Below are positions 20,582-64,000 of a stretch of 64,000 nt of DNA, one piece after another. Where the stretch lies: assembly GCA_002162815.1 (NCBI GenBank), contig MAAT01000039.1, positions 14,605 through 78,604 on the forward strand, in the 5' to 3' direction. This DNA comes from Gammaproteobacteria bacterium 53_120_T64. GTDB lineage: Bacteria > Pseudomonadota > Gammaproteobacteria > Pseudomonadales > Porticoccaceae. Position 1 is the first letter of the stretch. Each line of letters starts with the position of its first letter. Below the pieces are notes generated by a model that had not been told where the DNA came from, did not search any database, and saw only the letters and a program-made list of their open reading frames with translations. Position numbers and translations under genes: made by a program.

Positions 20582-20637
20582 GCGTTTAAGCCCTATAGCA
20601 AAGTGGCCAATCTACAGCCACTTTGCTATTTAATCGT

Positions 20638-21893: not shown

Positions 21894-21908
21894 AATGCAA
21901 TGAAAAGC

Positions 21909-22988: not shown

Positions 22989-23093
22989 TGTTCTACTCCT
23001 CTTCGGTTAATAAAAATTGTTAGTAATTTTGGTTTTATCTCAAGCTACAAGCTCTTGGTACTTAGGTGTCATCAATAATTGGCGTCGCTGTGA

Positions 23094-23858: not shown

Positions 23859-23914
23859 TGCTGAATTCCTTGTATTTATATTCTGTTTTTAAAGGACTGA
23901 GTTTTTAGCCATCC

Positions 23915-23952
23915 AAAAAAAACCCGAGTGCAAAGCAGCTCGGGTTTTTTTT
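23915..23952. terminator. bidirectional rho-independent terminator
   Basis: A8-cccgag-tgcaaagcag-ctcggg-T8. Confidence 0.8.
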
Positions 23953-23988
23953 ATTGCTACGCTGAGGCTAGCGAACTAGCCGTGCATC

Positions 23989-24756: not shown

Positions 24757-24858
24757 TTACTTATCTCCAAAAAAACACTACGTCGCGCATTGATTGAGCC
24801 CGCGTTTGGCCGTAGTGGTCGATCTTGTAGGGTTAGGTATTTAAACCTGTTGCGAGGT

Positions 24859-29817: not shown

Positions 29818-29922
29818 TAAAAGTCGCTAAAAAATCGACTTCCCAGGGCCATTCCACTTTGTGTAGTATGGCTCGGGTTTATTAACAACTAGCCCGTCTT
29901 TTTACGGGTAGGGAGAAACTGA

Positions 29923-31029: not shown

Positions 31030-31089
31030 TAAACCCATTTACAGTTTAATTTCGAATGTCGGCCCAAGGGTTCGACGGGGAGAGAAATA

Positions 31090-32193: not shown

Positions 32194-32274
32194 CTAGTCA
32201 CTTTTTAAACGTAGAGAGACCTGCATATAGGCGTGAATAAGCCCTATGTGCGGGTTTTAAACAGGGAAAAAATA

Positions 32275-34523: not shown

Positions 34524-34628
34524 TGTATTAGCAGGTCTATATCGATCTGCCAATGCCAAGCATGAATAGATAAAAAATTATTCAATCATTACGGCTAGAT
34601 TTGTTAATTAACACATGGAGTGAACACT

Positions 34629-36551: not shown

Positions 36552-36635
36552 TATGCCCCAAGTATAAAAAAGCCATTAGCTAAAGCTTATGGCTCAGGGC
36601 ATTAGACTCACATATTCCGTTGAAAGGAGAGCCGC

Positions 36636-41993: not shown

Positions 41994-42319
41994 GTTCTGA
42001 CTCGTGCCTGTAGATCAAATGGCTGCCAACTATACTAGCCCGATGTGGCTGTAAACTTGGCCGGGTGAGAGGGCGCAATCCAGTGAGTGTTCTTTTAGGC
42101 AGCCATTCTTGGCCTGTATCCCTTCCGAGTGAATACCAGCCCTTGCCGGCCCTGGCGAATGGTCTCCGCGTCTCGTGAAAATGCGACCTGTTAACGGTGT
42201 GTATTGACGGTAGTCTGCTATAGTTCAAAAAAATTGGTTATACATCAGATTATTAATAGTATTTAACCTATTGATTTGTAGTCGTTTCTACACCCTGTAG
42301 AGTAAGAGTCGAGCCCGAT

Positions 42320-43972
42320 ATGCAAAATATAAGTCCCCAGGTACTGGAGTTTATTGGCCACGAGTACAAGTCGGTGCTGCAATCTGTCAACGGCTTAGTA
42401 CAGCGACTGACCATCGCTCACTTAGAAGAGCTTAATGAGCAGCTACTAGAGCTACGCGGTGCCGCACAGATGGCCCAGCTTGCGGGTATGAGTCGCTTGT
42501 TTGCCGAGATGGCGAGGGCTGTAGACGCGGTGATTAGTGGCGATAAGGCCATTGACGAGCTGCAACCCTTGCTTGACCAGGCCCTGCTGCTGGCGGACGG
42601 TTTGATCGCCAGTATTGTTGAGCAAAAATCTGAGAACCCCTGCGTGCTTCTTCCCGAAATGACGGCGCTGCGCCGCTTCAGGGGCGCGCCTCCGCTCTAT
42701 GAATACCACTTGCTGAAGGACATCACTTGGCCACCCTTTGCCAGCCTGACTCAAGATGAAGACATAATAGGCCCGCAAACGGAGGGGCTGAAACGCTGGC
42801 ACCACCTCTATCAACTGGGGCTACTGGATATTATCCGCAATAATAATCGCCAAAAAGCCTTGTTCAATTTATTTCGAGTCGCGGGGCGTTTACAAAAAGT
42901 CGCCATATCTGCGCGAGAAAGTGATTACTGGTGGGTGTTTGCGCTCACCATCAAAGGCTTTGCCGAAAAGAAATTGAGTTTGCAGCCAGAGCGTATTCGC
43001 CTACTTGCGGCGGTGGAGAAACAATTGCGTTTGTTGGTGGCAACGGATCAGGTGGGAGCGCGAAACCCCTACCCTGAAGGCCTATGGCGCGCCTTTGTTA
43101 GCTTGTTGGCGATGACGGATATGTCCAGTGACCCGCGCGCGAAGCAGATTGGTGTGCCCAAATTAATGTTTTCTGACTCGGCTATATCCTCGGTGCGCAA
43201 CGCCATCACTGGTGAGTTGGATGCCGATAAAAGCATCCTTGAATCCATGGCGCTGTCGGCGGCGACCTTGCGTACATTGCTGGATAACGGCCCGGAATCT
43301 GCCTCCCTGCTTAACGGCGATAAACTGCAAGAGTTGAGTGTGGGTTTTACGGCATTGGCTGAAGAATGTGAGCAGGCCGGTTTTCGAGGTTTGTCGCGCC
43401 AGTACCAGCAGTTTTGCTCACGCTTACAGAGTTGCTCCGATGGTGAGTTACCCGCTGAATTACTCGCAGAATTTACCGATGCGGTGCTCCATGTCGAGTG
43501 CGCACTGGCCGATTTCTATGGCAAAACACCGCAGGCAGAGCAAATTAAAGCCTGGGAAGCTCAACCCTTGATGAGCATCTTGCAAAAGAGTTTATTAAAG
43601 ACGGCACAGGTTGCCGTGGTGAATGAGACTGCGGCCCGACTGGGTGATATCAAACAACTGGTGGACAATGTCGCCTCGGGGTATGCCTCGGCTGAAGTCA
43701 CCCCCGAGCTCGAGCTAGCCTTTGCCGAAATCGAAGGTAGCGCCAGTATGCTCAATATGGTTCGTTTTGCGAGTCTGGCAGATCGTTGTTTAATGCTCGC
43801 AAAAGAAGTGCTCTTCACCGATACCAATGGCGATGATGGCAAGCCGATTGAGGTGTTTGCCGATACCATTGTCTGTCTAGAGTATTTCCTCGATGGTTGT
43901 ATGGTGGGTGATACTATCGATGAGAGCTCTCTCGATGTCGCCAATGAGTGTTTGTCGTCACTCGGTGCCTAA
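42320..43972 (+). CDS. hypothetical alpha-helical protein (550 aa)
   Basis: Clean ORF after a 326-bp spacer. Leu/Ala/Glu/Gln-rich. No catalytic motif recognised. Possibly a FimL/ChpA-N-terminus-like scaffold, but this is speculative. Confidence 0.55.
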   Translation: MQNISPQVLEFIGHEYKSVLQSVNGLVQRLTIAHLEELNEQLLELRGAAQMAQLAGMSRLFAEMARAVDAVISGDKAIDELQPLLDQALLLADGLIASIVEQKSENPCVLLPEMTALRRFRGAPPLYEYHLLKDITWPPFASLTQDEDIIGPQTEGLKRWHHLYQLGLLDIIRNNNRQKALFNLFRVAGRLQKVAISARESDYWWVFALTIKGFAEKKLSLQPERIRLLAAVEKQLRLLVATDQVGARNPYPEGLWRAFVSLLAMTDMSSDPRAKQIGVPKLMFSDSAISSVRNAITGELDADKSILESMALSAATLRTLLDNGPESASLLNGDKLQELSVGFTALAEECEQAGFRGLSRQYQQFCSRLQSCSDGELPAELLAEFTDAVLHVECALADFYGKTPQAEQIKAWEAQPLMSILQKSLLKTAQVAVVNETAARLGDIKQLVDNVASGYASAEVTPELELAFAEIEGSASMLNMVRFASLADRCLMLAKEVLFTDTNGDDGKPIEVFADTIVCLEYFLDGCMVGDTIDESSLDVANECLSSLGA

Positions 43973-49111: not shown

Positions 49112-49318
49112 GCCTTGATTGAGCGCATTATAAATACGCTGCCATGAAGCGGGGTGAATAGGTCGGCAGACCTTGGCTAAAAAGCCAGCATCCCGACAGA
49201 AGAGTCGATCCGTAAGGGTCGGCTTTTTTATTGCCTCGGTTTTAATCTCTGGCTTTTAAGCTCGCGGCGAAGGCTGGTTTTAGATGTTACATTAGCGCCT
49301 TCTAAATAATTGTTGCGA

Positions 49319-50518
49319 GTTATGACAGTAGCAAATAACGTTTGGCTGTTTATGCTTTGCCAGGCGCTGACGATGTCGATTGCGTCCTTTGTGATTTTTG
49401 TCGGCAGTATTATCGGCAAAACACTGGCTCCGGAGCCTAGTTTGGCGACGATGCCTGTTGCCGCCTTCATCCTCGGCTCCGCGCTGGCGACACTGCCGGT
49501 GATCCTGTCGATGCGCCGCTATCAGCGCAAGCGGGTGTTCCTTTGCTGTGCGCTTATCGCCGGGCTTGGTTGCCTCCTGGCGATGTATGCCCTGCAATTG
49601 CAAAGTTTTAGCGTCTATCTTATTGCCGTGGTAGTGCTGGGTATTGGTCTGGCGGCCGGTCAACAGTACCGTTTTGCGGCGATGGAAAGCGTCGCATCGC
49701 CGGAGGCTCCCAAGGCGGCCTCGCGGGTCTTAATTGGAGGTATTGGCGCAGCATTTTTGGGGCCAGAGTTGGCGGTGCGTGGCGAGCACTTAACCATGAC
49801 GGCCTATCAGGGTTCATTTGCTCTGCTGATGGTGGTGGCCATTGCGGTCTTTTTTGTACTGTTTTTGTTTGTCGAACCGCCGCGTGACGAGCAGCAAAGT
49901 GATGCTGGCGGTCGGCCGCTGTTAGAAATTCTCGCCCAGCCAGTGATTCTGGTGGCGGTTATTTCGGGTTGTGCAGGCTTCGCGATAATGAGCTTGGTGA
50001 TGACGTCAACACCGCTGCACATGCATTTTGATAATGGCCATAGCCTAGTGGATACCAAGTGGGTGATTCAAAGTCATATTGTGGCGATGTTTTTACCGTC
50101 TTTTTTTGTCCCGTGGATTATTCGCCGGATTGGTGTGCAGGGCTTGATTAGCCTCGGTATTGTTGCCTTGCTGATGATGGTTGTCGTGGTTTTTTCGGAG
50201 TATGCCTTTGTCAATTACTGGCTGTCGTTAGTGCTGCTCGGCATTGGCTGGAACTTTTTGTTTGTTGGCGGCACCACGCTGTTGCCTGAGGGTTATGGTG
50301 AATCGGAACGCTTTAAAGTACAGGCCTTGAATGACTTTACTATTTTCGGGATTCAGGCTGTCGGGGCACTGCTGGCGGGGTGGATATTGAGCACACTTGG
50401 TTGGCAAACCCTGTTGTTAATTAGCTTGCCGATACTGGCGCTGCTGATCGCAACCTTGATTTACTGGCGCAGAGGTAGGCATCAGCAGATGGCTGGTACG
50501 CGGAAAGAAGTGGCTTAA
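49319..50518 (+). CDS. MFS transporter
   Basis: 12-TM topology with MFS loop motifs. Start placed at ATG 49319. Confidence 0.75.
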   Translation, partial: VMTVANNVWLFMLCQALTMSIASFVIFVGSIIGKTLAPEPSLATMPVAAFILGSALATLPVILSMRRYQRKRVFLCCALIAGLGCLLAMYALQLQSFSVYLIAVVVLGIGLAAGQQYRFAAMESVASPEAPKAASRVLIGGIGAAFLGPELAVRGEHLTMTAYQGSFALLMVVAIAVFFVLFLFVEPPRDEQQSDAGGRPLLEILAQPVILVAVISGCAGFAIMSLVMTSTPLHMHFDNGHSLVDTKWVIQSHIVAMFLPSFFVPWIIRRIGVQGLISLGIVALLMMVVVVFSEYAFVNYWLSLVLLGIGWNFLFVGGTTLLPEGYGESERFKVQALNDFTIFGIQAVGALLAGWILSTLGWQTLLLISLPILALLIATLIYWRRGRHQQMAGTRKEVA

Positions 50519-50622
50519 AACTGTTGCGGCTGGATTGCCGGCCGATAAGATACTGACGGATAGAAAAAAATAACAAAAAAAGCTCCGCCAACAGGCAGAG
50601 CTCATTAAAGTCGGGCTTGGCC

Positions 50623-51420
50623 TTAGCCAATCATGCTGTAACCACCGCTGGCACTGAGTACCTGTCCGGTGATATAGCCTGCAACCTGCTGGGAGGATAA
50701 AAACACCACGGCATTGGCGACATCCTGGGGCTTGCCGATACGCTTCAGTGGCAGCGTCTTGGCAATGGCCGCGAATTGGTCCTCGGTAAACATCGCATCC
50801 TTTTCCTTCCACATACTGTTTTCACTGGTTTCGTCAGTGGTCTCGGGCACGGTGACACCGGGGCAAACGCAGTTGCAGCGAATATTGTAACGGCCGTTTT
50901 CCTTGGCGATGGTTTTCATAAAGCTATTAGTGGCTGCTTTTAAACCGCCGTAAACCGCTTCGCGGGGCTCGCCCTGACGGCTGGCGTCAGAGCTAATGGA
51001 AACCATAGAACCACCGCCGTTGGGTACCATGTGGGCCAGTGCGACTTTGGTGCAGTTCAGCAAGCCAACGTAGTTAATAGCGATCAGCTTCTGCCATAGC
51101 TCGGGCGTGGTTTTGGTGAAGAACATCATGTCGTCCCAGCCGACGTTGTTGACGATGGCTTCAGCGATACCAAAGGTGGCGGCAACGGTATCGAAGAGGT
51201 TTTCGACACTGTTCAAATCGGTGATATCGGTTTTAATAACCTGAGCATCGGCGGCGCCGGCTTCTCTTGCCAGCGCGGCTACCCTTTCGCCGCTCTCAAT
51301 ATCGAGGTCGGCAATCGTGACCTTGGCGCCTTCTTCGGCAAATTTCAGAGCGATGGCGCGGCCAATGTTAGAGGCGGCTCCGGTGACGATAACTGAGCGG
51401 CCTTTTAAATCGAGATCCAT
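50623..51420 (-). CDS. SDR family oxidoreductase (possible BadH-like 2-hydroxyacyl-CoA dehydrogenase)
   Basis: VIVTGAASNIGRAIA… Last gene of a four-gene minus-strand operon. Confidence 0.75.
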   Translation of the reverse strand: MDLDLKGRSVIVTGAASNIGRAIALKFAEEGAKVTIADLDIESGERVAALAREAGAADAQVIKTDITDLNSVENLFDTVAATFGIAEAIVNNVGWDDMMFFTKTTPELWQKLIAINYVGLLNCTKVALAHMVPNGGGSMVSISSDASRQGEPREAVYGGLKAATNSFMKTIAKENGRYNIRCNCVCPGVTVPETTDETSENSMWKEKDAMFTEDQFAAIAKTLPLKRIGKPQDVANAVVFLSSQQVAGYITGQVLSASGGYSMIG

Positions 51421-51465
51421 AATAAAATCCTTAAAAAATAGTTAATTGCAGAATAAACTTAATAT

Positions 51466-52248
51466 TTATTTTACATATTTTCTGAAGTCGGGCTTACGCT
51501 TTTCAGCCAGCGCATTAACGCCTTCGCGGGACTCTTCTGAATCGTAATAGAGACGCAATGCTTCAAGACCGAGGTTGGCGATACCGCGAATGTTTTCGGT
51601 GGCCGCGTTAAAGGAGCGCTTGCCGATGGAGATCGCGGTGGGGCTGCGTTGTTCGAGCTCAGCACACCAGGCATCGACCTCGGCATCGAGCTGATCGTTG
51701 GGCACCACCTTATTCACCAGGCCCATTTCCTGGGCTTCGGCTGCGGTGTAGCGACGGCACATATACCAGATTTCCTTGGCTTTTTTGTCGCCGACAATTT
51801 GTGCCAGTAGGGCGGTGCCAAAGCCGGGATCAATAGAGCCCATTTTTGGGCCGACCTGGCCAAACTGAGCGTCTTCACCGGCGATAGTGAGATCGCAAAT
51901 GGTCGCCAGCACGTTGCCGCCGCCGATGGCGTAACCTTGTACTTTGGCGATAACGGGCTTGGGCACATCGCGAATAACGGTGTGCAGTTCTTCGACGGGT
52001 AGGCCGATGGTGCCGCGACCATCGTATTGACCGTCGTGGGAGGACTGATCGCCACCGGTACAAAAGGCTTTGTCGCCCGCGCCGGCAAGAACAATCACGC
52101 CGATGCTGTTATTCCAACCGGCTTTCTGGAAAGCATGGATCAGTTCATCGCAGGTGGTGCCGCGAAAGGCGTTGTAAACCTCGGGACGATTGATGGTGAT
52201 ATGGGCGGTTGCGCCCTTAACTTCGACGATAATATCTTGATAATCCAT
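51466..52248 (-). CDS. MenB/BadI-subfamily crotonase (1,4-dihydroxy-2-naphthoyl-CoA synthase-like; candidate 2-ketoacyl-CoA ring hydrolase)
   Basis: 260 aa. Very MenB-like motifs (AFCTGGDQ…, VQGYAIGGGNVLATICDLTIA, FGQVGPKMGSIDPGFG, EGVNALAEKRKPDF) but no men genes nearby. This length and context are typical of BadI. Confidence 0.7.
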   Translation of the reverse strand: MDYQDIIVEVKGATAHITINRPEVYNAFRGTTCDELIHAFQKAGWNNSIGVIVLAGAGDKAFCTGGDQSSHDGQYDGRGTIGLPVEELHTVIRDVPKPVIAKVQGYAIGGGNVLATICDLTIAGEDAQFGQVGPKMGSIDPGFGTALLAQIVGDKKAKEIWYMCRRYTAAEAQEMGLVNKVVPNDQLDAEVDAWCAELEQRSPTAISIGKRSFNAATENIRGIANLGLEALRLYYDSEESREGVNALAEKRKPDFRKYVK

Positions 52249-52409
52249 GGTGACACTTGCCTCTACTTGGCGCTCTGCGCATTGGGGTGAAGGTGCTTGA
52301 CCAAAAGCCTGCTACCAGGAGTTGACTACTGGGCGCTGATCAGCGTGGTCGAGTGTAGCAATTATTGTTGGTGTGGTGTCTAGTGTACGGGCCTTGCCAG
52401 AGCTGCGAT

Positions 52410-53186
52410 TTAGCTGAATTTAGGCGCTCGTTTTTCAGTAAAGGCCTGTAAGCCCTCGCTGACCGCAGCGCTGCGCAGCGCCGGGGTGGCGAGATCCAGT
52501 TCCAGCATTAGGCCCTGCTCGAGGGGCATGTCGAGGCCGCGATCGGTCAGTTGCTTCATTAAGGCCAGCCCGCGAGAGCTGCGTTGGCTGAGTTGTTGGC
52601 AGTAGGCGAGGGCGCTGTCGAGCAGCTTGTCATCTGCAACCACATAGTTCACCAGGCCGAAATCAAGGGCTTCATCGGCATTCAGCCAGCGGGCGCTGAG
52701 CATCAGTTCAAGAGCACGGCGGCGACCGATTAAGCGAGGCAGGCGTTGGCTGCCACCCCAGCCGGGTATCAAGCCAAACTGTGCATGTTGGTCGCCGAGT
52801 CGTGCGCTTTTACCGGCAAACACCACATCCCCAGCGAGTAGTAGCTCGAGCCCGCCCGCTAGTGCCAGGCCCTGTTGGGCGATAACCACGGGCAGGGGCG
52901 AGGTTTCCAACTTGCGGAGGGTGTCGAGTCCGGTTTCGAGAAAGGCGCGGATATCTTCATCGCTGTCGCGAAAACCGCTGACCTCTTCGAGATCGGCCCC
53001 GGTGCAGAAGTTTTTGCCATTGGCGGCGATCAGTACGGCGCGAATACTCGGCTCGATTTCAAATTGCTCTATCGCCTCGTAGAGGGCTTCATGCAGCGCC
53101 ATAGACAGGCAGTTAAATTGCTCTGGACGGTTTAAGGTGATGATGCCAACCGCGTCTTGCTGGCTGATTTCAATGACAGGTGACAT
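52410..53186 (-). CDS. enoyl-CoA hydratase/isomerase family protein
   Basis: ITLNRPEQFN…FCTGADL crotonase fold. Confidence 0.75.
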   Translation of the reverse strand: MSPVIEISQQDAVGIITLNRPEQFNCLSMALHEALYEAIEQFEIEPSIRAVLIAANGKNFCTGADLEEVSGFRDSDEDIRAFLETGLDTLRKLETSPLPVVIAQQGLALAGGLELLLAGDVVFAGKSARLGDQHAQFGLIPGWGGSQRLPRLIGRRRALELMLSARWLNADEALDFGLVNYVVADDKLLDSALAYCQQLSQRSSRGLALMKQLTDRGLDMPLEQGLMLELDLATPALRSAAVSEGLQAFTEKRAPKFS

Positions 53187-53245
53187 AGGCTATCTCTTTA
53201 ATGTTGTTAGGTAACGAGGTGTTATATGGATTTTATTATTGAATA

Positions 53246-54403
53246 TTAACCGGGTTTGCCAACGTAACTACGGGCGATCACCATCTTCATGATCTGCGCG
53301 GTACCGTCGCCAATTTGCATGCCGAGGACATCGCGCAAGCGCTGTTCAAAGGGCAGTTCATTACTGTAGCCTCCGTGACCGTGGGTCAACAGACACTGCT
53401 GGGTAATATCAAAGGCCAGCTTCGGCGCCCACCATTTGGCCATTGCCGCCTCTTTAGTGTGGTCTTTACCTTGGGCCTTTAACCACAAGGCTTTTAGGCA
53501 GACTAGGCGCGCACCTTCGAGGTGGGTTTCGGCTTCTGCGAGCGGGAAGGTAACCCCTTGATTGACGGCGAGAACCTTGCCGAAAGTTTTGCGTTCCTGA
53601 ATATATTGCCAGGTCTCATCCAGGCATTTACGGGCGAGGGCGAGGCATTGCAAGCCGATAAGCGCACGGCTGAAATCAAAACCCTGCATCACTTGCACAA
53701 AGCCTTTGCCCTCGTCGCCAATGCGATATTTCTCGTCAATCCGCACATCGTCAAAGAATAGGGAGCCGCGGCCGACGGATTTTTCACCAACGTCCTCAAA
53801 GCGAGTGCGAGTGATACCTGGGGCCGTGAGGTCAACGAGAAAGGCGGAGACGCCATGGGCCTTTTCTTCAACAGTGCCGGTGCGGGCAAAAACTAGGCAA
53901 AGGTCGGCTTGCTGGGCCATTGAGATGGAGGTTTTTTCACCGTTTAAGCGATAGAAATTGCCTGCCTCACTGGTATGCCGTGTCGCCTTTAGAGCGACAC
54001 CGGCCGCATCAGAACCGCCTCGGGGTTCGGTGAGGCCGATACAGGCGATGGCGTCGCCACTGCAGATGCGCGGCATGATTTCCTCTACCACCTCGGGCTG
54101 GGCGTGACTGAGAATACAATTGCCGACTAATGATGCGTTGATCGGTACATAGGCGATATTCATATCACCTTCGGCAATGGCTTCGGTAATAAGGCCTGAG
54201 GTCAAGGCATCGAGCCCGCTGCCGCCGTATTGCTCCGACGCCTCTGGGGCGATAAAGCCGAGTTGCCCCATTTCTGCTATTAAGGTTCGGTTAAAGGCGC
54301 AGGACTTGTCGCCGGCCTGGTACTCTGGGGCGAGTTTGTCGCTGGCAAAACGCCGGGCGCTATCGAGTAGTGAGCGTTGAAAATCGGTGAGCCCGAAATC
54401 CAT
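53246..54403 (-). CDS. acyl-CoA dehydrogenase
   Basis: Start at MDFGLTDFQ (AAGGA RBS). C-terminal …RIGDGTAQIMKM… is typical of ACADs. Confidence 0.8.
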   Translation of the reverse strand: MDFGLTDFQRSLLDSARRFASDKLAPEYQAGDKSCAFNRTLIAEMGQLGFIAPEASEQYGGSGLDALTSGLITEAIAEGDMNIAYVPINASLVGNCILSHAQPEVVEEIMPRICSGDAIACIGLTEPRGGSDAAGVALKATRHTSEAGNFYRLNGEKTSISMAQQADLCLVFARTGTVEEKAHGVSAFLVDLTAPGITRTRFEDVGEKSVGRGSLFFDDVRIDEKYRIGDEGKGFVQVMQGFDFSRALIGLQCLALARKCLDETWQYIQERKTFGKVLAVNQGVTFPLAEAETHLEGARLVCLKALWLKAQGKDHTKEAAMAKWWAPKLAFDITQQCLLTHGHGGYSNELPFEQRLRDVLGMQIGDGTAQIMKMVIARSYVGKPG

Positions 54404-54588
54404 AATATTGTCCTTGCCTGCGGCTGTTGGGCGCTGTGGCTGAAAGTTATTGTTATGTGGCACATTTGTTCGAATGAACCGCGATTTGCGTCTTAAAAAC
54501 TGGTCTCGAAACGTGTCAACGAAGAGGCGTTTAAGGTATTATTGATTGTCATAATAATACTTACATCAACCCTCCTTGGTAAGGTTAT

Positions 54589-55047
54589 ATGCTAGAAAAT
54601 GACGAATTAAGTTCGGATATCCCCCTCAAACTGTTCTTTCGTTTGTATCAGGCAATGAACCTCTCTTTGCGTAGGGCGGCGGAGGTGCTCAGTGAATTTG
54701 ATATGAGCGCTCAGCAGTGGTCGATCCTCGATTCTCTAACGCGACCGGGTTATGAAAAGGGTATGACGGTTAACGGTCTGGTGGAATACCTGATGGTGAG
54801 TCGCCAGAGCCTTAACGGCGTGCTGCGGCGCATGGAAGAGTCGGGATATATCGAGCGCGTGGTGAACCCCGATGATTTGCGCTCGCGACAAATTCGCCTT
54901 ACCCCCTATGGACGAGACGTGTGTAAAAAGGTCGAACCCAAGGTCAAAAAGTTTTACCACGACAGTGTGCGGCATATGTCGGAAGAAGAGAGGATCAACA
55001 GCCTCAATATGCTGAATCAAATCCTCGGTAATATGCGTAAAAAATAG
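54589..55047 (+). CDS. MarR-family transcriptional regulator (divergent from the ACAD operon)
   Basis: 152 aa with winged-HTH core (…SAQQWSILDSL…GMTVNGLVEYLMVSRQSLNGVLRRMEESGYIER…). Confidence 0.75.
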   Translation: MLENDELSSDIPLKLFFRLYQAMNLSLRRAAEVLSEFDMSAQQWSILDSLTRPGYEKGMTVNGLVEYLMVSRQSLNGVLRRMEESGYIERVVNPDDLRSRQIRLTPYGRDVCKKVEPKVKKFYHDSVRHMSEEERINSLNMLNQILGNMRKK

Positions 55048-57089: not shown

Positions 57090-57506
57090 TACAGCGTGAG
57101 TCTATCTCTCTAATATAGGGAACTGCGGCGATTTCTCTAATACTAGCAGTTTGGCGCAGGGCTTTTCTTCTGAGCCCTTGCTAGGGTGAACGAATCGATG
57201 TTGTCGACAATTTAGTGAAGATAGCTTTACCAGCGAGCGCACTAGCGAGTGTTAGGGTTCATACCGGCCCTTGGTAAATAGCATATTGATAAAGCCTTGG
57301 GCAGAGATAATTATATGACTATCAAGTCGAGAATAGTCATTGTATGTTGTTGGCCTGCCACTTAGGCTGCCTGCTGACACTGCCCTCAAGCCATAAAATA
57401 AAGTAGCTGGCGACATGACAAGGGGTCAAGATTAGAAAGGGCCAAGATTTTTTAATGCTGAGTTGAAAGACAAGGCACACCATTTGATAGACCATCTGGG
57501 GGCGGT

Positions 57507-58670
57507 ATGGACTTTAATATTTCTGAAGAACAACGCATGATCCATGAATACGGTAACAGTCTCAGTAAGACTTACGACCGTGCCTACTGGATGGAGAATG
57601 CTGAAATTCACCGCTTTCCCGAGGAAATGTATCAACAGGTCGCCGCTGACGGTTTTCTCGGCACCATGGTACCCGAGGCCTTTGGTGGCGCCGGTTTGGG
57701 CATGCTTGAAATGCTCTTGTTTCAGGAGGGTATAGCCAATCAAGGTATACCGCTGCTAAGTCTGGTGGTCGGTGCCTGTATGACCATGTCGGTACTGGCG
57801 GGCCATGGCAGTGATGCCCAGCGCAATAATTATTTACCCGCTGCCTGCAAGGGCGATATCCGCTTTTGCTTTGCCATTACCGAAGCCAACGCCGGCACTA
57901 ACACTATCAATATAGGCACCCTTGCCAAGCCAACGGCGCAGGGCGGGTTTAAGCTCAACGGCAATAAGACGTTTATTACCGATGCGGCCGAATCCGATTA
58001 CGCCCTAGTCGTGGCGCGCACCACACCCTTGAGTGAAACCAAGCGCAAGACCGATGGCTTCACCCTGTTTATTGTGCCCACCAAGGCGAAAGGCGTAGAG
58101 ATGCAGCCTATTCCGGTGAGTATTGCCCTGCCCGAATTACAATATCAGGTGTTTTTTGATGACGTAGAACTGGGGCCAGAGAATGTCCTCGGTGAGGTCG
58201 GCAAAGGCTTTAATATCCTTTTCGATTCCCTCAATCCCGAGCGCATACTCGGTGGTGCTATTTGCACCGGCATTGGCCGCTTTGCGATGGACAAAGCTGT
58301 CGCCTATGCTAATGATCGAGTGGTGTTTAATGGCCCCATCGGGGCTTATCAAGCTTTACAGCATCCCTTGGCAATCGCAAAGACTGAAATTGAAATGGCT
58401 TCTTTAATGGCGCGCAAGGCAGCTTGGTTATTTGACAATGGTGAGCCCTGTGGTGCGGAGGCCAATATGGCCAAGCTGGCGGCCTCCGAAGCGGGTATTA
58501 AAGCGGTGGATGCCTCTTTACAGTGTTTTGGCGGTAATGGCTTTACGAAAGAATACGGCATTTTTGATCTCTACCCACTGGTGCGCTTAACTAAAACGGC
58601 GCCCATTAATAATGAAATGATCCACAATTATATTGCTGAACACGTGATGGGCTTGCCGCGTTCGTACTAG
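57507..58670 (+). CDS. acyl-CoA dehydrogenase, tandem paralog 1 of 5
   Basis: 387 aa. MDFNISEEQ…CFAITE…GTNT…QCFGGNGFTKEYGIFDLYP… GGGGG RBS. Confidence 0.8.
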   Translation: MDFNISEEQRMIHEYGNSLSKTYDRAYWMENAEIHRFPEEMYQQVAADGFLGTMVPEAFGGAGLGMLEMLLFQEGIANQGIPLLSLVVGACMTMSVLAGHGSDAQRNNYLPAACKGDIRFCFAITEANAGTNTINIGTLAKPTAQGGFKLNGNKTFITDAAESDYALVVARTTPLSETKRKTDGFTLFIVPTKAKGVEMQPIPVSIALPELQYQVFFDDVELGPENVLGEVGKGFNILFDSLNPERILGGAICTGIGRFAMDKAVAYANDRVVFNGPIGAYQALQHPLAIAKTEIEMASLMARKAAWLFDNGEPCGAEANMAKLAASEAGIKAVDASLQCFGGNGFTKEYGIFDLYPLVRLTKTAPINNEMIHNYIAEHVMGLPRSY

Positions 58671-58722
58671 CTTTTTCGAACGGCAGCTCAAATTAAGCCA
58701 CCAACCAAGCGGAGCGTAGACA

Positions 58723-59886
58723 ATGGATTTTTCCCTTTCCGAAGAACAGCAGATGATCTATGGCTATGGCGCTAATCTGGCCAAAACCTTTGATCGCAAG
58801 CACTGGTTGGAATACGCCGACAAGGCGCGCTTTCCCACAGAGATGTATCAGCAGGTTGCCCAAGATGGTTTTGTTGGTGTCATGGTGCCCGAAGCCTACG
58901 GTGGTTCTGGCCTTGGCATGATGGAAATGGGACTCTTAAACGAAGGCCTTTCAGAGCAGGGTATTCCGCTACTGAGCTTGGTGATTGGCGCGACCATGGG
59001 CCTGAGTCTGATTTCCAGCTTCGGCAGCGAAGAGCAAAAGCAGTACTACCTGCCCGATGCCTGTAGCGGTAAAACGCGTTTTTGCTTTGCCATTACCGAG
59101 CCAAACGCCGGCACCAACACCATTAAAACCAATACCATGGCCAAAGCGACGGGTGATGGCCGCTTTAAAATTAATGGTGCGAAGACCTTTATTACCGATG
59201 CCGCTGAATCTGATTATATGCTGCTGGTGACCCGCACCACAGCTCATACCGAGGTTGAACGCAGTACCGATGGCTTTACCTTATTTATAGTGCCGACCAA
59301 GGCCAAGGGTATAGAAATGCAGCCCATCCCTGTCAGTATTAAAATTCCGGAAGTGCAGTATCAAGTGTTTTTTGATGACGTCGATGTTGGCCCTGAACAT
59401 GTACTCGGCGAAGTTGGCAAAGGTTTCCGCGTACTGTTTGATGCCCTCAATCCCGAACGTATTTTGGTGGGTTTTATCTGTGCCGGATTGGGCCGTTATG
59501 CCATGGAACGAGCCGTGGAATATGCCAATGAGCGCGTAGTGTTTAACGGCCCCATCGGCGCTTATCAAGCACTGCAACACCCCTTAGCGAAAGCGAAAAC
59601 AGAAATTGAACTGGCGAGCTTAATGGCGAAAAAGGCCGCTTGGCTATTTGATAAGGGTGAGTCCTGCGGTGGTGAATCCAACATGGCCAAGTTTGCCGCT
59701 GCCGAAGCGGCCTGTAATGCTATCGATGCCTCGCTGCAATGTTTTGGCGGTAATGGCTTTACGGCGGAATACGGTATTTTTGACCTGTACCCCCTGGCGC
59801 GCTTGCTGAAAACGATCCCGCTGAACAACGAAATGGTACTTAATTACGTGGCTGAGTATGTACTTGGCTTACCCCGCAGTTATTGA
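58723..59886 (+). CDS. acyl-CoA dehydrogenase, tandem paralog 2 of 5
   Basis: 387 aa, collinear with paralog 1. Confidence 0.8.
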   Translation: MDFSLSEEQQMIYGYGANLAKTFDRKHWLEYADKARFPTEMYQQVAQDGFVGVMVPEAYGGSGLGMMEMGLLNEGLSEQGIPLLSLVIGATMGLSLISSFGSEEQKQYYLPDACSGKTRFCFAITEPNAGTNTIKTNTMAKATGDGRFKINGAKTFITDAAESDYMLLVTRTTAHTEVERSTDGFTLFIVPTKAKGIEMQPIPVSIKIPEVQYQVFFDDVDVGPEHVLGEVGKGFRVLFDALNPERILVGFICAGLGRYAMERAVEYANERVVFNGPIGAYQALQHPLAKAKTEIELASLMAKKAAWLFDKGESCGGESNMAKFAAAEAACNAIDASLQCFGGNGFTAEYGIFDLYPLARLLKTIPLNNEMVLNYVAEYVLGLPRSY

Positions 59887-59926
59887 TGACTAACAATAAA
59901 TAGCCCTGTTACTGGAGATTTGATCA

Positions 59927-61090
59927 ATGGATTTTAATTTATCCGACGAACATAAAATGATTTACGAGTACGGCAATAGCCTGGCGAAAAGCTATGATCG
60001 TAAATACTGGATGGAGTGTGCCGAGCGCCGCGCCTTCCCCAAAGAGATGTACCAGCAGTCTGCGGCGGATGGTTTTGTTGGCACTATGGCACCCGAAGCC
60101 TACGGCGGTGCAGGCCTTGGCATGCTTGAAATGGAGCTGTTTACCGAAGGCTTGGCGAATAATGGGATTCCACTTTTAACCTATGTTATTGGCTCGGTGA
60201 TGTCCCTGGGCCCCATTGGCGACCACGGCACGGAAGCGCAAAAACAGCGCTACCTGCCCGATGCCTGCGCCGGTAAAACGCGCTTTTGTTTTGCGATTAC
60301 CGAAGCGGATGCTGGCACCAATACCATGCAGGCCAAAACCTTCGCTAAAAAAACCGCCGATGGTCGTTTTAAATTGAATGGCAATAAAACGTTTATTACC
60401 GACTGGGCTGAATCTGACTACGCATTGGTCGTCTCGCGTACCACGAGTCTCGCCGATGCCAGTAAAAAGACCGAAGGTTTCACCTTATTTATTGTCGATA
60501 CCAAGGCCAAAGGCATAGAGTGGCAGCCCATTCCCGTCAGTGTGCCGGTGCCGGAAATGCAATATCAGGTATTTTTTGATGATGTCGATCTCGGCCCGGA
60601 AGATGTATTGGGTGAAGTGGATAAGGGTTTTGAAATCCTTTTCGAATGCCTCAACCCCGAGCGCATTATGGTCGGCGCCATCGGTGCCGGTCTCGGTCGT
60701 TTTGCTATGGACAAAGCTGTCGCATACGCCAATGAGCGCGTGGTGTTTAAAGGCCCCATCGGTGCCTATCAGGCACTGCAGCACCCACTAGCCAAAGCCA
60801 AAACCGAAATCGAAATGGCGTCATTAATGACCCGTAAAGCCGCCTGGTTATTTGATAAGGGCGAGCACTGCGGTGCCGAAGCCAATATGGCCAAGTGTGC
60901 GGCGGCCGAGGCATCCATTCATGCCGTCGATGCCTCGCTACAATGCTTTGGCGGTAATGGCTTTACCAAGGAGTACGGCATTTTTGACATTTACCCGATG
61001 GTACGGCTGTTTAAAACAGCGCCATTAAATAATGAAATGGTGCTTAACTATATTGGTGAGCACGTGATGGGTCTGCCGCGCTCTTATTAA
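59927..61090 (+). CDS. acyl-CoA dehydrogenase, tandem paralog 3 of 5
   Basis: 387 aa, collinear with paralog 1. Confidence 0.8.
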   Translation: MDFNLSDEHKMIYEYGNSLAKSYDRKYWMECAERRAFPKEMYQQSAADGFVGTMAPEAYGGAGLGMLEMELFTEGLANNGIPLLTYVIGSVMSLGPIGDHGTEAQKQRYLPDACAGKTRFCFAITEADAGTNTMQAKTFAKKTADGRFKLNGNKTFITDWAESDYALVVSRTTSLADASKKTEGFTLFIVDTKAKGIEWQPIPVSVPVPEMQYQVFFDDVDLGPEDVLGEVDKGFEILFECLNPERIMVGAIGAGLGRFAMDKAVAYANERVVFKGPIGAYQALQHPLAKAKTEIEMASLMTRKAAWLFDKGEHCGAEANMAKCAAAEASIHAVDASLQCFGGNGFTKEYGIFDIYPMVRLFKTAPLNNEMVLNYIGEHVMGLPRSY

Positions 61091-61188
61091 AGAAAGCTGG
61101 CGCCTATTTTTGTACGCCTGGTTTTTATTTGTATTTTCTGTTCGTGCTTTCTGTTTGTAATGCGCGACTAACCAAGAGATAAGGCTTT

Positions 61189-62352
61189 ATGGATTTTTCC
61201 CTTAGCGACGAACAAAACATGATTTATGACTACGGCCAAAGTTTGGCTAAGTCTTACGACCGCAAGTACTGGATGGAGTGTGCCGACGCCGGTCGTTTCC
61301 CGGAGGAAATGTATAAACAAGTCGCGGCAGATGGTTTCGTTGGCACCATGGTACCCGAAGCCTACGGTGGTGCCGGCCTGGGTTTGGTCGAAATGGATCT
61401 GTTCATGGAAGGCCTGTCCAACCAGGGGATCCCTCTATTAAGCTTGGTGATTGGCGCCACCATGTCGATGGCACCGATTGGTGACCACGGTACCGAGGAG
61501 CAAAAGCAGCAGTACTTACCCGACGCCTGTGCCGGTAAAACACGCTTTTGCTTTGCCATCACCGAGTCCGGTGCCGGCACCAATACCATTAAGGCAGCGA
61601 CCATTGCCAAGCAAACCCCGGACGGTCGTTTTAAATTGAACGGTAATAAGACCTTTATTACCGACTTCGTCGAATCGGATTATGCCCTGGTGGTCGCACG
61701 CACCACTCCTCACACCGAGGTCGAGCGTAAAACCGATGGCTTTACGCTGTTTATTGTCGACACCAAAGCCAAGGGCGTTACGGCGAATCAGATACCGGTA
61801 AGTATCCCCATTCCCGAGCTGCAATACGAAGTGTTCTTTGACGATGTCGAACTAGGGCCAGAGCATGTGCTCGGTGAAGTTGGCAAGGGCTTTAATATTC
61901 TTTTTGAATCCCTCAATCCCGAGCGCGTTCTTGTCGGTGCTATTTGCACGGGTGTTGGTCGCTACGCCATGGAGAAGGCCGTTGAATATGCCAACGACCG
62001 CGTGGTCTTTAATGGCCCCATCGGTGCCTACCAGGCCTTGCAGCATCCCTTGGCAAAAGCAAAAACTGAAATCGAATTGGCGTCGTTAATGACCCGCAAG
62101 GCTGCATGGCTGTTTGATCGGGGTGAAGCCTGTGGCGGTGAGTCGAATATGGCGAAATACGCGGCGGCAGAAGCGGCACTGCACGCTGTCGATGCTTCAC
62201 TACAATGCTTTGGTGGCAACGGCTTTACCAAAGAATACGGTATCTTTGATATTTATCCGATGGTACGTCTCTTTAAAACCGCGCCCCTGAACAGTGAAAT
62301 GATACTCAACTATATCGGCGAACATGTTCTCGGTTTGCCACGTTCTTATTAA
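61189..62352 (+). CDS. acyl-CoA dehydrogenase, tandem paralog 4 of 5
   Basis: 387 aa, collinear with paralog 1. Confidence 0.8.
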   Translation: MDFSLSDEQNMIYDYGQSLAKSYDRKYWMECADAGRFPEEMYKQVAADGFVGTMVPEAYGGAGLGLVEMDLFMEGLSNQGIPLLSLVIGATMSMAPIGDHGTEEQKQQYLPDACAGKTRFCFAITESGAGTNTIKAATIAKQTPDGRFKLNGNKTFITDFVESDYALVVARTTPHTEVERKTDGFTLFIVDTKAKGVTANQIPVSIPIPELQYEVFFDDVELGPEHVLGEVGKGFNILFESLNPERVLVGAICTGVGRYAMEKAVEYANDRVVFNGPIGAYQALQHPLAKAKTEIELASLMTRKAAWLFDRGEACGGESNMAKYAAAEAALHAVDASLQCFGGNGFTKEYGIFDIYPMVRLFKTAPLNSEMILNYIGEHVLGLPRSY

Positions 62353-62427
62353 TGGTTTTTTACAACAGGGCCGTTTAATGACGGCGCACTTAACTGCCAG
62401 TGCAGTTATTACTTATTGGAGTTGATA

Positions 62428-63591
62428 ATGGATTTTAATCTTAGCGAAGAGCAGGAAATGATTTATCAGTACGGGACAAATCTTGCCAAAGATTTTGATC
62501 GCAAGTACTGGACGGATTGCGCCGAGCGCCGCGAGTTCCCCACGGCGATGTACCAAAAAGTCGCGGATGATGGCTTTGTCGGCCTGATGGTGCCCGAAGC
62601 GTACGGTGGTGCGGGCTTGGGTATGACCGAAATGGTGCTCTTTCAGGAGGGTTTGTCGAACCAGGGTATACCCTTGTTGAGTTTGGTGGTTGGTGCCACC
62701 ATGTCTCTTGGCCCCATTGGTGAGCACGGTACAGAAGAGCAAAAGCAAAAGTATTTACCCGCAGGTTGTCGTGGTGATATTCGCTTCTGTTTTGCCATTA
62801 CCGAGCCGACGGCCGGCACCAATACCATGAAAACCAACACCATGATCAGAGAAACGGGTGATGGTCGCTATAAATTAAACGGTGCTAAAACCTTTATCAC
62901 CGATGCCGGGGGCTCCGACTATATGCTAGTCGTCAGCCGTAATAAGGCCTTTGAAGAGGTCGACCGCAAGACCGACGGCTTTACGATTTTAATCGTCGAC
63001 AGAAAAGCCCCCGGGGTTTCCGTACAGCCCATCGATGTCAGCATTCCTATTCCTGAATTACAGTATCAAGTGTTTTTTGACGATGTCGATATCGGCCCCG
63101 AGCATGTGCTTGGCGAAGTCGGCAAGGGTTTTGATATTCTCTTTGAATCCCTCAATCCCGAGCGCATTATTCTCGCTGCAGTGGCCAACGGTTTGGGTCG
63201 CTATGCGATGGAGAGGGCGGTTGAATACGCCAATGAGCGCGTAGTGTTTAATGGCCCGATCGGTGCCTACCAAGCCCTGCAACACCCCTTGGCCAAGGCG
63301 AAAACTGAAATCGAAATGTCCTCGCTGATGACCCTTAAAGCGGCAAGCCTGTTCGACAAAGGTGAGCCCTGTGGCGCAGAGGCGAATATGTCCAAGTACT
63401 CGGGCGCAGAGGCGGCGATGCATGCCATTGATGCCTCGTTACAGTGTTTTGGCGGTAATGGTTTCACCAAGGAATACGGTATTTTTGACCTGTATCCGGT
63501 TGCGCGACTGTTAAAAACAGCGCCGCTGAATAGTGAAATGGTCTTGAACTATATTGCCCAACACGTGATGGGCCTGCCAAAGTCCTATTGA
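62428..63591 (+). CDS. acyl-CoA dehydrogenase, tandem paralog 5 of 5
   Basis: Start at ATG 62428 (MDFNLSEEQ). 387 aa. Confidence 0.8.
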   Translation: MDFNLSEEQEMIYQYGTNLAKDFDRKYWTDCAERREFPTAMYQKVADDGFVGLMVPEAYGGAGLGMTEMVLFQEGLSNQGIPLLSLVVGATMSLGPIGEHGTEEQKQKYLPAGCRGDIRFCFAITEPTAGTNTMKTNTMIRETGDGRYKLNGAKTFITDAGGSDYMLVVSRNKAFEEVDRKTDGFTILIVDRKAPGVSVQPIDVSIPIPELQYQVFFDDVDIGPEHVLGEVGKGFDILFESLNPERIILAAVANGLGRYAMERAVEYANERVVFNGPIGAYQALQHPLAKAKTEIEMSSLMTLKAASLFDKGEPCGAEANMSKYSGAEAAMHAIDASLQCFGGNGFTKEYGIFDLYPVARLLKTAPLNSEMVLNYIAQHVMGLPKSY

Positions 63592-63630
63592 TTTTTTGTA
63601 GGCTGATTGTTTCAGTCTGATACGTTAAAG

Positions 63631-63657
63631 CCGAGCAGGAGACTGTTCGGTTTTTTT
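63631..63657 (+). terminator. rho-independent terminator after the ACAD array
   Basis: ccgagcag-gaga-ctgttcgg followed by T7. Confidence 0.65.
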
Positions 63658-63783
63658 GGTTGTTTTAATTGTTTTACGGCGGTGGTTTATTCGCAATGGC
63701 GCTGGTATTTTCTGGTAATTAAAACGCTGTTGATACCCGTGCCTATCAGTAAGATGAATGGATAGGCTGTAAATTTAAGTCAT

Positions 63784-63817
63784 AAAAAAGCCCCGCTGTT
63801 ACCAGCGGGGCTTTTTT
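63784..63817. terminator. bidirectional rho-independent terminator
   Basis: A6-gccccgctg-ttac-cagcggggc-T6. Confidence 0.8.
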
Positions 63818-63837
63818 ATGGTTTCAGTTTTGCTGTT

Positions 63838-64000
63838 TTAAAACTGATTCATGGTGTTGTCTTTACCCGAGGCTTTCAATGCCTGGTCACCGGAGAAGTA
63901 CTCTTTGTGGGCGTCGCCCATGTCGGAGCCAGCCATGTTTTGGTGCTTAACGCAGGCGATACCCTGACGGATTTCTTTGCGCTGTACGCCGGCAACATAA
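63838..64000 (-). CDS. 3' end of an unidentified gene running off the window (C-terminus …GDQALKASGKDNTMNQF*)
   Basis: Open frame to the window edge on the minus strand. Stop at 63838-63840, immediately followed by the bidirectional terminator. Confidence 0.4.
   Translation of the reverse strand, partial: YVAGVQRKEIRQGIACVKHQNMAGSDMGDAHKEYFSGDQALKASGKDNTMNQF

Follow-up and report, generated by a model that had tools for sequence, protein, structure and literature searches.

The 64,000-nucleotide stretch of DNA from Gammaproteobacteria bacterium 53_120_T64 analysed here (contig MAAT01000039.1, positions 14,605 to 78,604; hereafter the window) carries at positions 57507-63591 an array of five tandem paralogs of acyl-CoA dehydrogenase (ACAD), which we refer to as A1 to A5. 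We propose that the array is a battery of five isozymes with diversified substrate pockets, each of which would be active independently by a mechanism like that of isovaleryl-CoA dehydrogenase (IVD), and that the family to which they belong had its ancestral role in a pathway for acyl-CoAs derived from branched or alicyclic compounds. We give this reading a probability of roughly 55%. The A4 protein is a 100% match to a protein of Gammaproteobacteria bacterium 53_120_T64, and its relatives at 98-99% identity are named Candidatus Reddybacter sp. (Porticoccaceae). The description of that genus reports blooms of Ca. Reddybacter in seawater from the Gulf of Mexico on methylcyclohexane and methylcyclopentane, and 17 ACAD genes per genome; it does not mention the tandem array.

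The initial annotation of the window described five consecutive, same-strand ACAD genes separated by 40-98 bp, and this layout was borne out. A1 (57507-58670), A2 (58723-59886), A3 (59927-61090), A4 (61189-62352) and A5 (62428-63591), which were defined from their open reading frames (ORFs) and Pfam matches, are all on the + strand and each encodes a protein of exactly 387 amino acids, with intergenic gaps of 52, 40, 98 and 75 bp. The domains Acyl-CoA_dh_N, _M and _1 (PF02771, PF02770 and PF00441) are present in all five proteins (E-values of 1e-17 to 1e-33), which places them in the ACAD superfamily of soluble, tetramer-type proteins of about 43 kDa built from an N-terminal helical, a middle beta-sheet and a C-terminal helical domain. 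The assignment of a separate ribosome-binding site to each gene agrees with our reading of the sequence, in which Shine-Dalgarno-like purine runs are found at the starts of A1-A5 (GGGGG, GGAG, GGAG, AAGG and GGAG, respectively). The conserved termini that had been proposed apply to part of the array: only A2 and A5 match the N-terminal motif MDF[NS]LSEEQ exactly, the sequences being MDFNISEEQ in A1, MDFNLSDEH in A3 and MDFSLSDEQ in A4, and the C-terminal GLPRSY is present in A1-A4, with GLPKSY in A5. For A5, the ORF listing reaches back to a TTG at 62416; we set the start at the ATG at 62428 because GGAG is situated 6 nt before it, it yields the 387-residue length and the same start is called in public records. 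No frameshift, truncation or loss of a catalytic residue was found among the five genes.

To assess the catalytic residues we used a MAFFT alignment of the family with human IVD, MCAD and LCAD (100% matches to 1ivh, 1ege and 8w0t, respectively) and with CaiA and YdiO of Escherichia coli, and we counted residue conservation over 199 family members in A4 numbering. The catalytic base is situated in the J-K loop of all known ACADs except IVD and LCAD, in which it is on helix G (PMC10925408). Glu376 of MCAD, the J-K loop residue, aligns with Pro366 in the family motif T-A/I-P-x-N, a proline in all 199 members except one (Gln). The helix G residues of the other two enzymes, IVD Glu254 and LCAD Glu291, align with Glu245 of an invariant LNPER motif, and the Glu245-Arg246 pair is present in 199/199 members; CaiA and YdiO have the same arrangement as the family. 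The QCFGGNG motif is also common to the family and IVD. Based on the list of flavin adenine dinucleotide (FAD) contacts of IVD (T168, R280, Q291, G352 and E379; PMC12369846), the corresponding Arg271, Gln282, Gly343 and Glu370 are invariant in 199/199 members, with Thr or Ser at position 158 (Thr158) throughout. We infer that A1-A5 are catalytically complete in the manner of IVD. The possibility that several copies are pseudogenes with a lost catalytic Glu, which had been raised as a ground on which the functional interpretation would fail, is ruled out by the IVD-type Glu245 that all five retain despite the proline in the J-K loop. We also considered whether a helix E proline is the equivalent of LCAD Pro132; this was ambiguous, as Pro82 of the family is two residues upstream in the MAFFT alignment, and we make no claim from it.

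The predicted structure is consistent with these assignments. An AlphaFold2 model of A4 (pLDDT 84.6, pTM 0.85) has the canonical ACAD fold and superposes on more than 50 ACAD chains at TM-scores of 0.86-0.91, as determined by Foldseek. These structural neighbors gave no hint of the subfamily of the A4 model, the ACADs all being about equally distant from it. Each enzyme would most likely catalyze the standard alpha,beta-dehydrogenation of an acyl-CoA, with proton abstraction expected from Glu245 on helix G rather than from a J-K loop Glu.

The residues expected to shape the substrate pocket provide a basis for considering the five proteins as isozymes of different specificity. In IVD, the small residues Gly374 and Ala375 replace Tyr375-Glu376 of MCAD and leave room for a branch, and the depth of the pocket is limited by Leu95 and Leu258 (PMC12369846). 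In the family, Ala (Ile in A2) and Pro replace the Tyr-Glu of MCAD, an arrangement like the one that in IVD gives lateral room for a branch at C3. The LCAD cavity list and the IVD determinants were used to fix 17 cavity positions in advance, and a strict discriminating site was defined as one at which each of A1-A5 is at least 90% fixed within its own ortholog group and the groups are not all alike. By this definition 18 of the 387 sites discriminate the paralogs, comprising 4 of the 17 cavity positions and 14 of the 370 positions elsewhere (odds ratio 7.8, one-sided Fisher p=0.005). Position 249, which corresponds to the depth position of IVD, is Gly in A1 (17/17), Val in A2-A4, Leu in A5 and in the A6 copies of other genomes, and Ile in A7; position 365, where branch room is determined, is Ile in A2 alone (19/19) and Ala in all others; and position 160, two residues past the flavin-contacting Thr, is Phe or Trp in A3, Phe in A4 and Ala in the rest. 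The pocket signatures of the window proteins are accordingly Gly249/Ala160/Ala365/Ile367 in A1, Val249/Ala160/Ile365 in A2, Val249/Trp160/Ala365 in A3 (Phe or Trp at 160 in its orthologs), Val249/Phe160/Ala365 in A4 and Leu249/Ala160/Ala365 in A5. We regard this pocket-biased pattern of divergence as suggestive, not conclusive, and consider it likely that A1-A5 differ in specificity. In the model that we propose, the copies would have diverged mainly at cavity positions 249, 160 and 365, and each would be suited to branched or alicyclic-derived acyl-CoAs of a different size or shape, generated from petroleum cycloalkanes and isoprenoids.

The divergence of the five copies is old. Their pairwise identities are 69-79% at the amino acid level and 67-74% at the DNA level, with an identity of merely 41-53% at third codon positions, and the proportion of synonymous differences (pS, Nei-Gojobori) is 0.63-0.78, i.e., synonymous sites are saturated. 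No gene conversion tracts were found among A1-A5, the longest exact run of shared DNA being 24 nt, and the same five-gene array recurs in independent public assemblies. The copies are thus not near-identical, the other ground for doubt that the initial annotation had named, and an assembly artefact or recent duplication is ruled out by the third-position identities, the saturated synonymous divergence and the independent assemblies. Comparisons with orthologs at dS of 0.5-3 gave omega values of 0.008-0.030 over all five copies (A1, 0.013-0.025; A2, 0.016-0.020; A3, 0.017-0.030; A4, 0.008-0.024; A5, 0.009-0.019), and strong purifying selection therefore acts on each gene. The integrity, age and selective constraint of A1-A5 are essentially certain.

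We scanned for the family in one genome per GTDB species and obtained 77 loci. Tandem amplification had been described as uncommon, which does not hold within Porticoccaceae: same-strand tandem arrays of three to seven copies are present in every Porticoccaceae locus, two betaproteobacterial loci have two to three copies each, and all loci of Alphaproteobacteria (Bradyrhizobium, Afipia, Rhodopseudomonas and Xanthobacteraceae) have a single copy. Within Porticoccaceae the Reddybacter group has five copies; L010, L025 and L034 have six, L011, L012, L014 and L080 have seven, another group has four and L018 has three. The gene length is highly conserved, with exactly 387 codons in 192 of the 199 family genes. 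Among individual loci, an additional copy of the A6 type sits between A3 and A4 in a close relative (L010, 5142-12435), making six; in a sister genus (L012/L080, 6254-15093) there are seven copies, A1-A7, in order; and in L081 four copies are followed by a dienelactone-hydrolase-family gene and then by a fifth ACAD of 387 amino acids.

A neighbor-joining tree of the family (200 bootstraps) grouped the Porticoccaceae copies as monophyletic (bootstrap 100) and resolved them into ortholog groups A1 (93), A2 (86), A3 (100) and A4 (100), with A3 and A4 as sister groups (69), and an A5 superclade (95) to which the additional A6 and A7 copies from sister genera also belong. The gene order A1-A2-A3-A4-A5(-A6-A7) is kept across genera and chromosomal order mirrors the tree. 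As the ortholog groups are shared across genera, at least four copies are older than the split of the genera and have been retained in place since. Retention in a fixed place is the pattern expected of functionally distinct isozymes, and not of dosage. The array would have arisen in Porticoccaceae by tandem duplication to at least four copies before that split, with later expansion to five to seven.

A1-A5 probably form one transcription unit, driven by a regulated promoter upstream of A1, with transcription ending at the terminators past A5. The 417-bp region upstream of A1 is poorly conserved in eight species of the Reddybacter group except for an island, TGACyAnCArGTCnnnnATAGTCA, that corresponds to the candidate operator TGACTATCAAGTCGAGAATAGTCA at 57316-57339 (no strand assigned), about 190 bp upstream of A1. 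Within this candidate is a perfect 8-bp inverted repeat with a 10-nt spacer, ATGACTAT-N10-ATAGTCAT (57315-57340). The motif TGACNANCARGTCNNNNATAGTCA was found upstream of A1 in 11 loci (L001, L003-L010, L019 and L031) and nowhere else in 85 loci; L031 is from another genus. It is unique in the window, where the chance expectation is 0.01 matches, which rules out that the operator is shared with the promoter of the MarR and AliB-like genes described below. The island is plausibly an operator for some regulator. A consensus scan gave a weak candidate for a sigma-70-like promoter upstream of A1 (TTGATA-17-AATTAT, 57286-57314, + strand); such sites are no more frequent in the region than expected from shuffled sequence, and the only support for this candidate is its position directly 5' of the conserved operator-like motif.

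The array had been described as bracketed by single terminators. This applies to the 3' side, where there are two hairpins, an intrinsic-terminator-like one with a T-run (63627-63654, + strand) 36 nt past the A5 stop codon, and a strong bidirectional one (63779-63822, no strand assigned) shared with a convergent isocitrate lyase gene, whose 3' end is at 63841-63999 and whose assignment derives from L001 and tblastn. It does not apply to the 5' side, as no terminator was found between A1 and the divergent mltF. No convincing terminator was found inside the array. A search for riboswitches and leader RNAs upstream of and between the genes yielded no Rfam family, with only sub-threshold matches at the 3' terminator hairpin.

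By sequence similarity the family stands apart from named ACADs. None of A1-A5 reached an NCBIfam equivalog, the top models being PRK12341 (YdiO type), AcrC and CaiA with 158-228 bits against cut-offs of 537-640, and the closest solved structures have about 30% identity to the family across the aligned region. The human IVD structure 1ivh scored 114 bits, below many other ACADs. The next relatives beyond the family, in a library of 1.84 billion representatives, have at most 48% identity. A1-A5 are not members of the AliB family (127-151 bits against TIGR03207, cut-off 575), and with about 25% identity to human IVD and no IVD equivalog match they are not members of the IVD orthologous family. 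The family also differs from IVD in having Pro, not Ala or Gly, at the position of MCAD Glu376, in its pocket-depth residue and in being multi-copy, although the two have in common the position of the catalytic Glu (also that of LCAD) and a small residue in place of MCAD Tyr375.

The neighborhoods of the family genes point to the kind of pathway in which they may function. A bad/ali-like ring-opening module (50623-54463) is situated 3 kb upstream of the array on the opposite strand, with tadA and mltF in between. Its genes, all on the - strand, encode a BadH-like short-chain dehydrogenase/reductase (SDR; 50623-51420; 214 bits against the BadH model, cut-off 431), a BadI-like hydrolase (51466-52248; 456 bits, cut-off 468), a BadK-like enoyl-CoA hydratase (52410-53186) and an AliB-like ACAD (53246-54403/54463; AliB model, 548 bits, cut-off 575), and the MarR gene (54589-55047) is divergent from the last of these. 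A major facilitator superfamily (MFS) transporter accompanies the module, and a near-complete bad/ali-type set for the ring opening of cyclohexanecarboxyl-CoA spans 49310-55047. The AliB-like ACAD of the window has Asp at the catalytic position. The module suggests that Ca. Reddybacter could degrade methylcycloalkanes via cycloalkane-carboxylates; in the published reconstruction of Reddybacter metabolism a lactone route is central and the cycloalkane-carboxylate route is not emphasised. We consider the module a probable functional partner of the array, located outside the array itself.

In Alphaproteobacteria, the single family gene is followed directly downstream by genes for a 538-residue carboxyltransferase and a 665-residue biotin carboxylase/biotin carboxyl carrier protein, and further downstream by genes for a BadH-like SDR, hydratases and a CoA ligase; upstream are CoA ligases, a hydratase, a thiolase with its DUF35 partner, and an ortholog of the AliB-like ACAD. 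The carboxyltransferase is of the methylcrotonyl-CoA carboxylase (MCC) beta type (570-632 bits, compared with 434 for the beta chain of geranyl-CoA carboxylase, GCC, and 230-266 for that of propionyl-CoA carboxylase, PCC). The AliB-like ACADs that cluster with single-copy family genes are 51-57% identical to that of the window, and the SDR of the Afipia cluster is 65% identical to the window BadH-like SDR. Genes of the AliB-like, BadH-like and BadI-like types are found in clusters with the family gene in Alpha- and Betaproteobacteria as well as in the window; the AliB-like link was seen in Alpha-, Beta- and Gammaproteobacteria, and the carboxylase link in single-copy relatives only.

A homolog with 61% identity and the motifs GIPLL, LNPER, TAPVN and GLPRSY is also present on conjugative plasmids of the Roseobacter group (Sulfitobacter, Paracoccus and others). 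There it is part of an operon that begins with an AliB-like ACAD (53% identical to that of the window), an enoyl-CoA hydratase, the family ACAD and a CoA ligase, continues with a carboxyltransferase (64% identical to that of Afipia), a biotin carboxylase, a 3-hydroxy-3-methylglutaryl-CoA (HMG-CoA) lyase and an SDR, and ends with a citryl-CoA-lyase-like protein, a further ACAD and a MaoC dehydratase. A 2,4-dienoyl-CoA reductase gene is divergent from it. Examples are Sulfitobacter NZ_CP040754 (L086) and Paracoccus NZ_CP115758 (L087); several of the host strains are diatom-associated, and an acyl-CoA mutase is present too. Judging from its gene content, the operon appears to encode a catabolic pathway for branched or cyclic acids that lacks prior characterisation, and we found no paper on the array or on a pathway combining BadI with an MCC- or GCC-type carboxylase.

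This combination of genes resembles that of the Liu and Atu pathways of leucine and acyclic terpene catabolism, in which an ACAD forms a 3-methyl-2-enoyl-CoA, a carboxylase carboxylates the methyl group, and a hydratase and lyase remove the branch. In Alphaproteobacteria and on the Roseobacter plasmids the family gene precedes an MCC-type carboxylase, as liuA does; the family clusters differ from liu operons in containing AliB-like and BadI-like genes. AtuD and PA1535 of the acyclic terpene utilisation (Atu) pathway were reportedly described by Foerster-Fromme and Jendrossek in 2008 as citronellyl-CoA dehydrogenases. Compared by gene context and not by sequence, AtuD has the same role that we propose for the family, supplying a 3-methyl-2-enoyl-CoA to a geranyl-CoA/MCC-type carboxylase ahead of hydration and a lyase step, and the Atu neighborhood similarly comprises an ACAD, carboxyltransferase, biotin carboxylase, enoyl-CoA hydratase, SDR and CoA ligase, to which the plasmids add the HMG-CoA lyase. 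The differences are that the family-linked carboxyltransferase is nearer to MCC beta than to GCC beta, and that the family clusters have alicyclic-pathway genes and no atuA- or atuB-type genes. In our proposal, the family would originally have carried out the dehydrogenase step for branched, ring-derived acyl-CoAs, in partnership with an AliB-like ring dehydrogenase, an MCC/GCC-type carboxylase and an HMG-CoA-lyase-type enzyme; the enzyme would form a 3-methyl-2-enoyl-CoA whose methyl group would then be carboxylated, the product hydrated and the branch cleaved off. That the substrates of A1-A5 are beta-methyl-branched acyl-CoAs from the breakdown of cycloalkanes or isoprenoids is a reasoned guess.

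The same neighborhoods raise an alternative, that the battery acts on the dicarboxylyl-CoA products of ring opening by the adjacent module (pimeloyl-CoA, adipyl-CoA and their methyl analogues). The AliB-like, BadK-like, BadI-like and BadH-like genes are only 3 kb away, the co-clustering of the family with bad/ali-like genes extends over three proteobacterial classes and is wider than the carboxylase link, and the oxidation of methylcycloalkanes via cycloalkane-carboxylates, if the pathway is as we suppose, would give such products. We nevertheless consider this alternative unlikely. A1-A5 score 83-107 bits against PimC and PimD and 176-183 bits against glutaryl-CoA dehydrogenase, where the cut-offs are at least 470 (above 620 for PimC/PimD). 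The cavity positions have hydrophobic residues, and neither an obvious basic partner for an omega-carboxylate nor a conserved Arg or Lys that could bind the distal carboxylate is present among them; this speaks against dicarboxylyl-CoA products of ring cleavage as substrates. In addition, the two gene sets are separated by tadA and mltF, and the promoter region of the MarR and AliB-like genes lacks the operator motif found upstream of A1.

The initial annotation also suggested that the paralogs might form heteromers. These could be mixed tetramers or, as with FadE26-FadE27 or PimCD, obligate heterotetramers, and the array would then encode one or a few complexes instead of five separate enzymes. 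Co-located and probably co-transcribed genes whose order is kept across genera would fit such an arrangement, and the stretches best conserved among the paralogs, near residues 265-296 and 335-355, match the helices for FAD binding and dimer contact, which makes cross-assembly sterically plausible. Fused double-ACAD proteins of 770-814 amino acids, natural tandem fusions, occur among distant relatives (P0128, P0141, P0154, P0167, P0177 and P0187), although these are only 26-34% identical to the family. The steroid ACAD pairs FadE26-27 and FadE28-29 are likewise encoded by adjacent, co-transcribed genes; however, such pairs consist of two distant subunits, one of them catalytic (PMC10925408), whereas the array has five to seven tandem members of a tight subfamily, all complete. 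In the known alpha2beta2 ACADs one subunit lacks FAD binding and the catalytic base. No copy here lacks the catalytic Glu or the FAD contacts, and 199/199 family members are complete, so that A1-A5 do not belong to this class and the suggestion of heteromers found no support. The copy number of one to seven across lineages, with a single copy evidently functional alone, is also hard to fit with an obligate fixed stoichiometry. Heteromers seem to us improbable, although some facultative mixing may occur.

Another alternative is that the enzymes operate in the reductive direction, as enoyl-CoA reductases dependent on electron transfer flavoprotein (ETF) such as CaiA (crotonobetainyl-CoA reductase), YdiO and the clostridial AcrC. 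The models for these enzymes (PRK03354, PRK12341 and NF042972, respectively) are the nearest named ones to the family, with which they have in common the N-terminal MDF(N/S)L, the helix G Glu, "FIT" for "WIT" and a proline (G-x-P) before helix E. Even so, the scores of A1-A5 are less than half of the cut-offs (537-540 for CaiA and YdiO), so that they are not members of these reductase families, and the identity to CaiA and YdiO is 26-30%. No ETF (fixAB/ydiQR type) or ferredoxin-like genes flank the array within 10 kb on either side in the five loci inspected (L001, L080, L081, L086 and L087). The host is an aerobic hydrocarbon degrader, and the carboxylase, lyase, hydratases and CoA ligases nearby are catabolic. 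We assign the reductive direction little probability.

Very little, too, can be assigned to a different chemistry on the ACAD fold, such as that of an oxidase, desulfinase, monooxygenase or acyl-carrier-protein dehydrogenase. The replacement of the canonical Glu by Pro, the deviations at the "RD" and G-x-R-x-S sites detailed below and weak NCBIfam similarities to models of 3-sulfinopropanoyl-CoA desulfinase, PigA/RedW and SfnB/DszC could be taken in this direction, but the IVD-type Glu-Arg pair is invariant, the alternative models score far below their cut-offs, and in four lineages the genes nearby encode enzymes that act on CoA thioesters (CoA ligases, hydratases, thiolase, acyl-CoA carboxylase and HMG-CoA lyase). 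That the array merely supplies more of the same enzyme, or is a decaying remnant of amplification, without functional differentiation, is highly improbable, since, although adaptation by dosage usually starts with tandem amplification and the copies are alike in length, termini and core motifs, synonymous sites are saturated with no homogenisation, 1:1 orthologs at omega of 0.01-0.03 occupy a fixed order in other genera, the cavity has group-specific fixed substitutions, and no copy has a frameshift, truncation or catalytic loss.

Returning to the proposal of five pocket-diversified, independently active isozymes, several points weigh against it. With looser definitions of a discriminating site the cavity enrichment has the same direction at p=0.03 and p=0.07, and we stress significance for the strict version only; moreover, the cavity was mapped onto the family through a sequence alignment at about 25% identity and not from coordinates. 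Co-transcription was deduced from the short gaps and the lack of internal terminators, which are its sole basis. The family departs from the ACAD consensus in having "YP" for the "RD" of MRDAK and in the loss of the G-x-R-x-S loop motif, and databases name its members only as generic "acyl-CoA dehydrogenase family protein", with "fadE12" once. With respect to the pathway, no carboxylase or lyase gene was found in the 64-kb window, and in other Porticoccaceae genera the arrays stand alone between housekeeping genes (ccm, VIT1 and MFS), from which it follows that the carboxylase link is documented for single-copy relatives only. A biotin carboxylase gene beside the array of one Porticoccaceae locus (L029) was considered as a carboxylase link and rejected, as it belongs to a two-subunit pyruvate carboxylase.

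Set against these points, the substrate-range battery that the initial annotation envisaged is favored by copies that are diverged, intact and individually constrained, with fixed differences enriched in the cavity; the substrate itself remains a matter of deduction. The accompanying guess of branched or alicyclic hydrocarbon or naphthenic-acid catabolism is in keeping with the biology of Reddybacter, with the adjacent bad/ali-like module and with the MCC and HMG-CoA-lyase links of the single-copy relatives.

Other regions of the window and its flanks have features that are separate from the array. Positions 16970-25626 encode a family III CoA-transferase, a 400-residue ACAD, an alpha/beta-hydrolase, a luciferase-like (possibly type II Baeyer-Villiger) monooxygenase and four SDRs, and positions 29053-33129 encode an SDR, two Zn-dependent alcohol dehydrogenases and an SMP-30/lactonase-like protein; the content of these two regions is consistent with the metabolism of cyclic alcohols, ketones and lactones. 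A protein of 1785 residues with DUF3686 ("ATPase involved in DNA repair"), DUF7902 and AAA domains is encoded at 36636-41993, flanked by ORFs of 643 and 550 residues that have no Pfam match (34620-43972 in total), and the GC content falls to 0.47-0.49 over approximately 32-40 kb. The 34620-43972 region may be a defence or mobile module. Beyond the 3' end of the window, positions 12650-18235 of L001 have the convergent isocitrate lyase gene, Tex, a tyrosine-type integrase and small ORFs without Pfam matches, and the integrase stretch may be the edge of an integrated element.

ACADs, and hydrocarbon degraders rich in them, are already known, and the multi-copy fadE/ACAD sets of hydrocarbon and lipid degraders likewise comprise many paralogs per genome, as do the 17 of Reddybacter. 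New here are the subfamily itself, which lacks a characterised member and is conserved between three classes of Proteobacteria with identities of 60-70%, the regularity with which AliB-like and MCC-type carboxylase genes accompany it, and the three- to sevenfold diversification, in tandem and in a set order, that it has undergone in Porticoccaceae. Its relation to AtuD, which was compared by context only, would bear on the newness of the subfamily. As a practical consequence, annotation pipelines should check the helix G position before an ACAD without the canonical Glu is called inactive. The few cavity substitutions at 160, 249 and 365 that may set specificity make the array a natural experiment in the evolution of ACAD specificity.

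Methylated cycloalkanes and naphthenic acids make up an abundant and toxic part of petroleum that is poorly understood, and the array is a concrete set of five (and up to seven) closely related candidate enzymes for the branched isomers that would follow from ring opening. The link of the family to MCC-type carboxylase and bad/ali-like genes points to an undescribed pathway variant. More tentatively, and with odds that we place well short of even, the family may be a widespread, unrecognised class of dehydrogenases for beta-branched and alicyclic acyl-CoAs, acting with AliB-like, BadI-like, MCC-type and HMG-CoA-lyase-type enzymes in an undescribed pathway of ring opening plus branch removal, and its three- to sevenfold diversification may be a key adaptation of Porticoccaceae. 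If so, the pathway would serve for substituted cycloalkane and terpenoid acids, and tandem diversification would let Porticoccaceae consume many methylated cycloalkane isomers in seawater after an input of oil.

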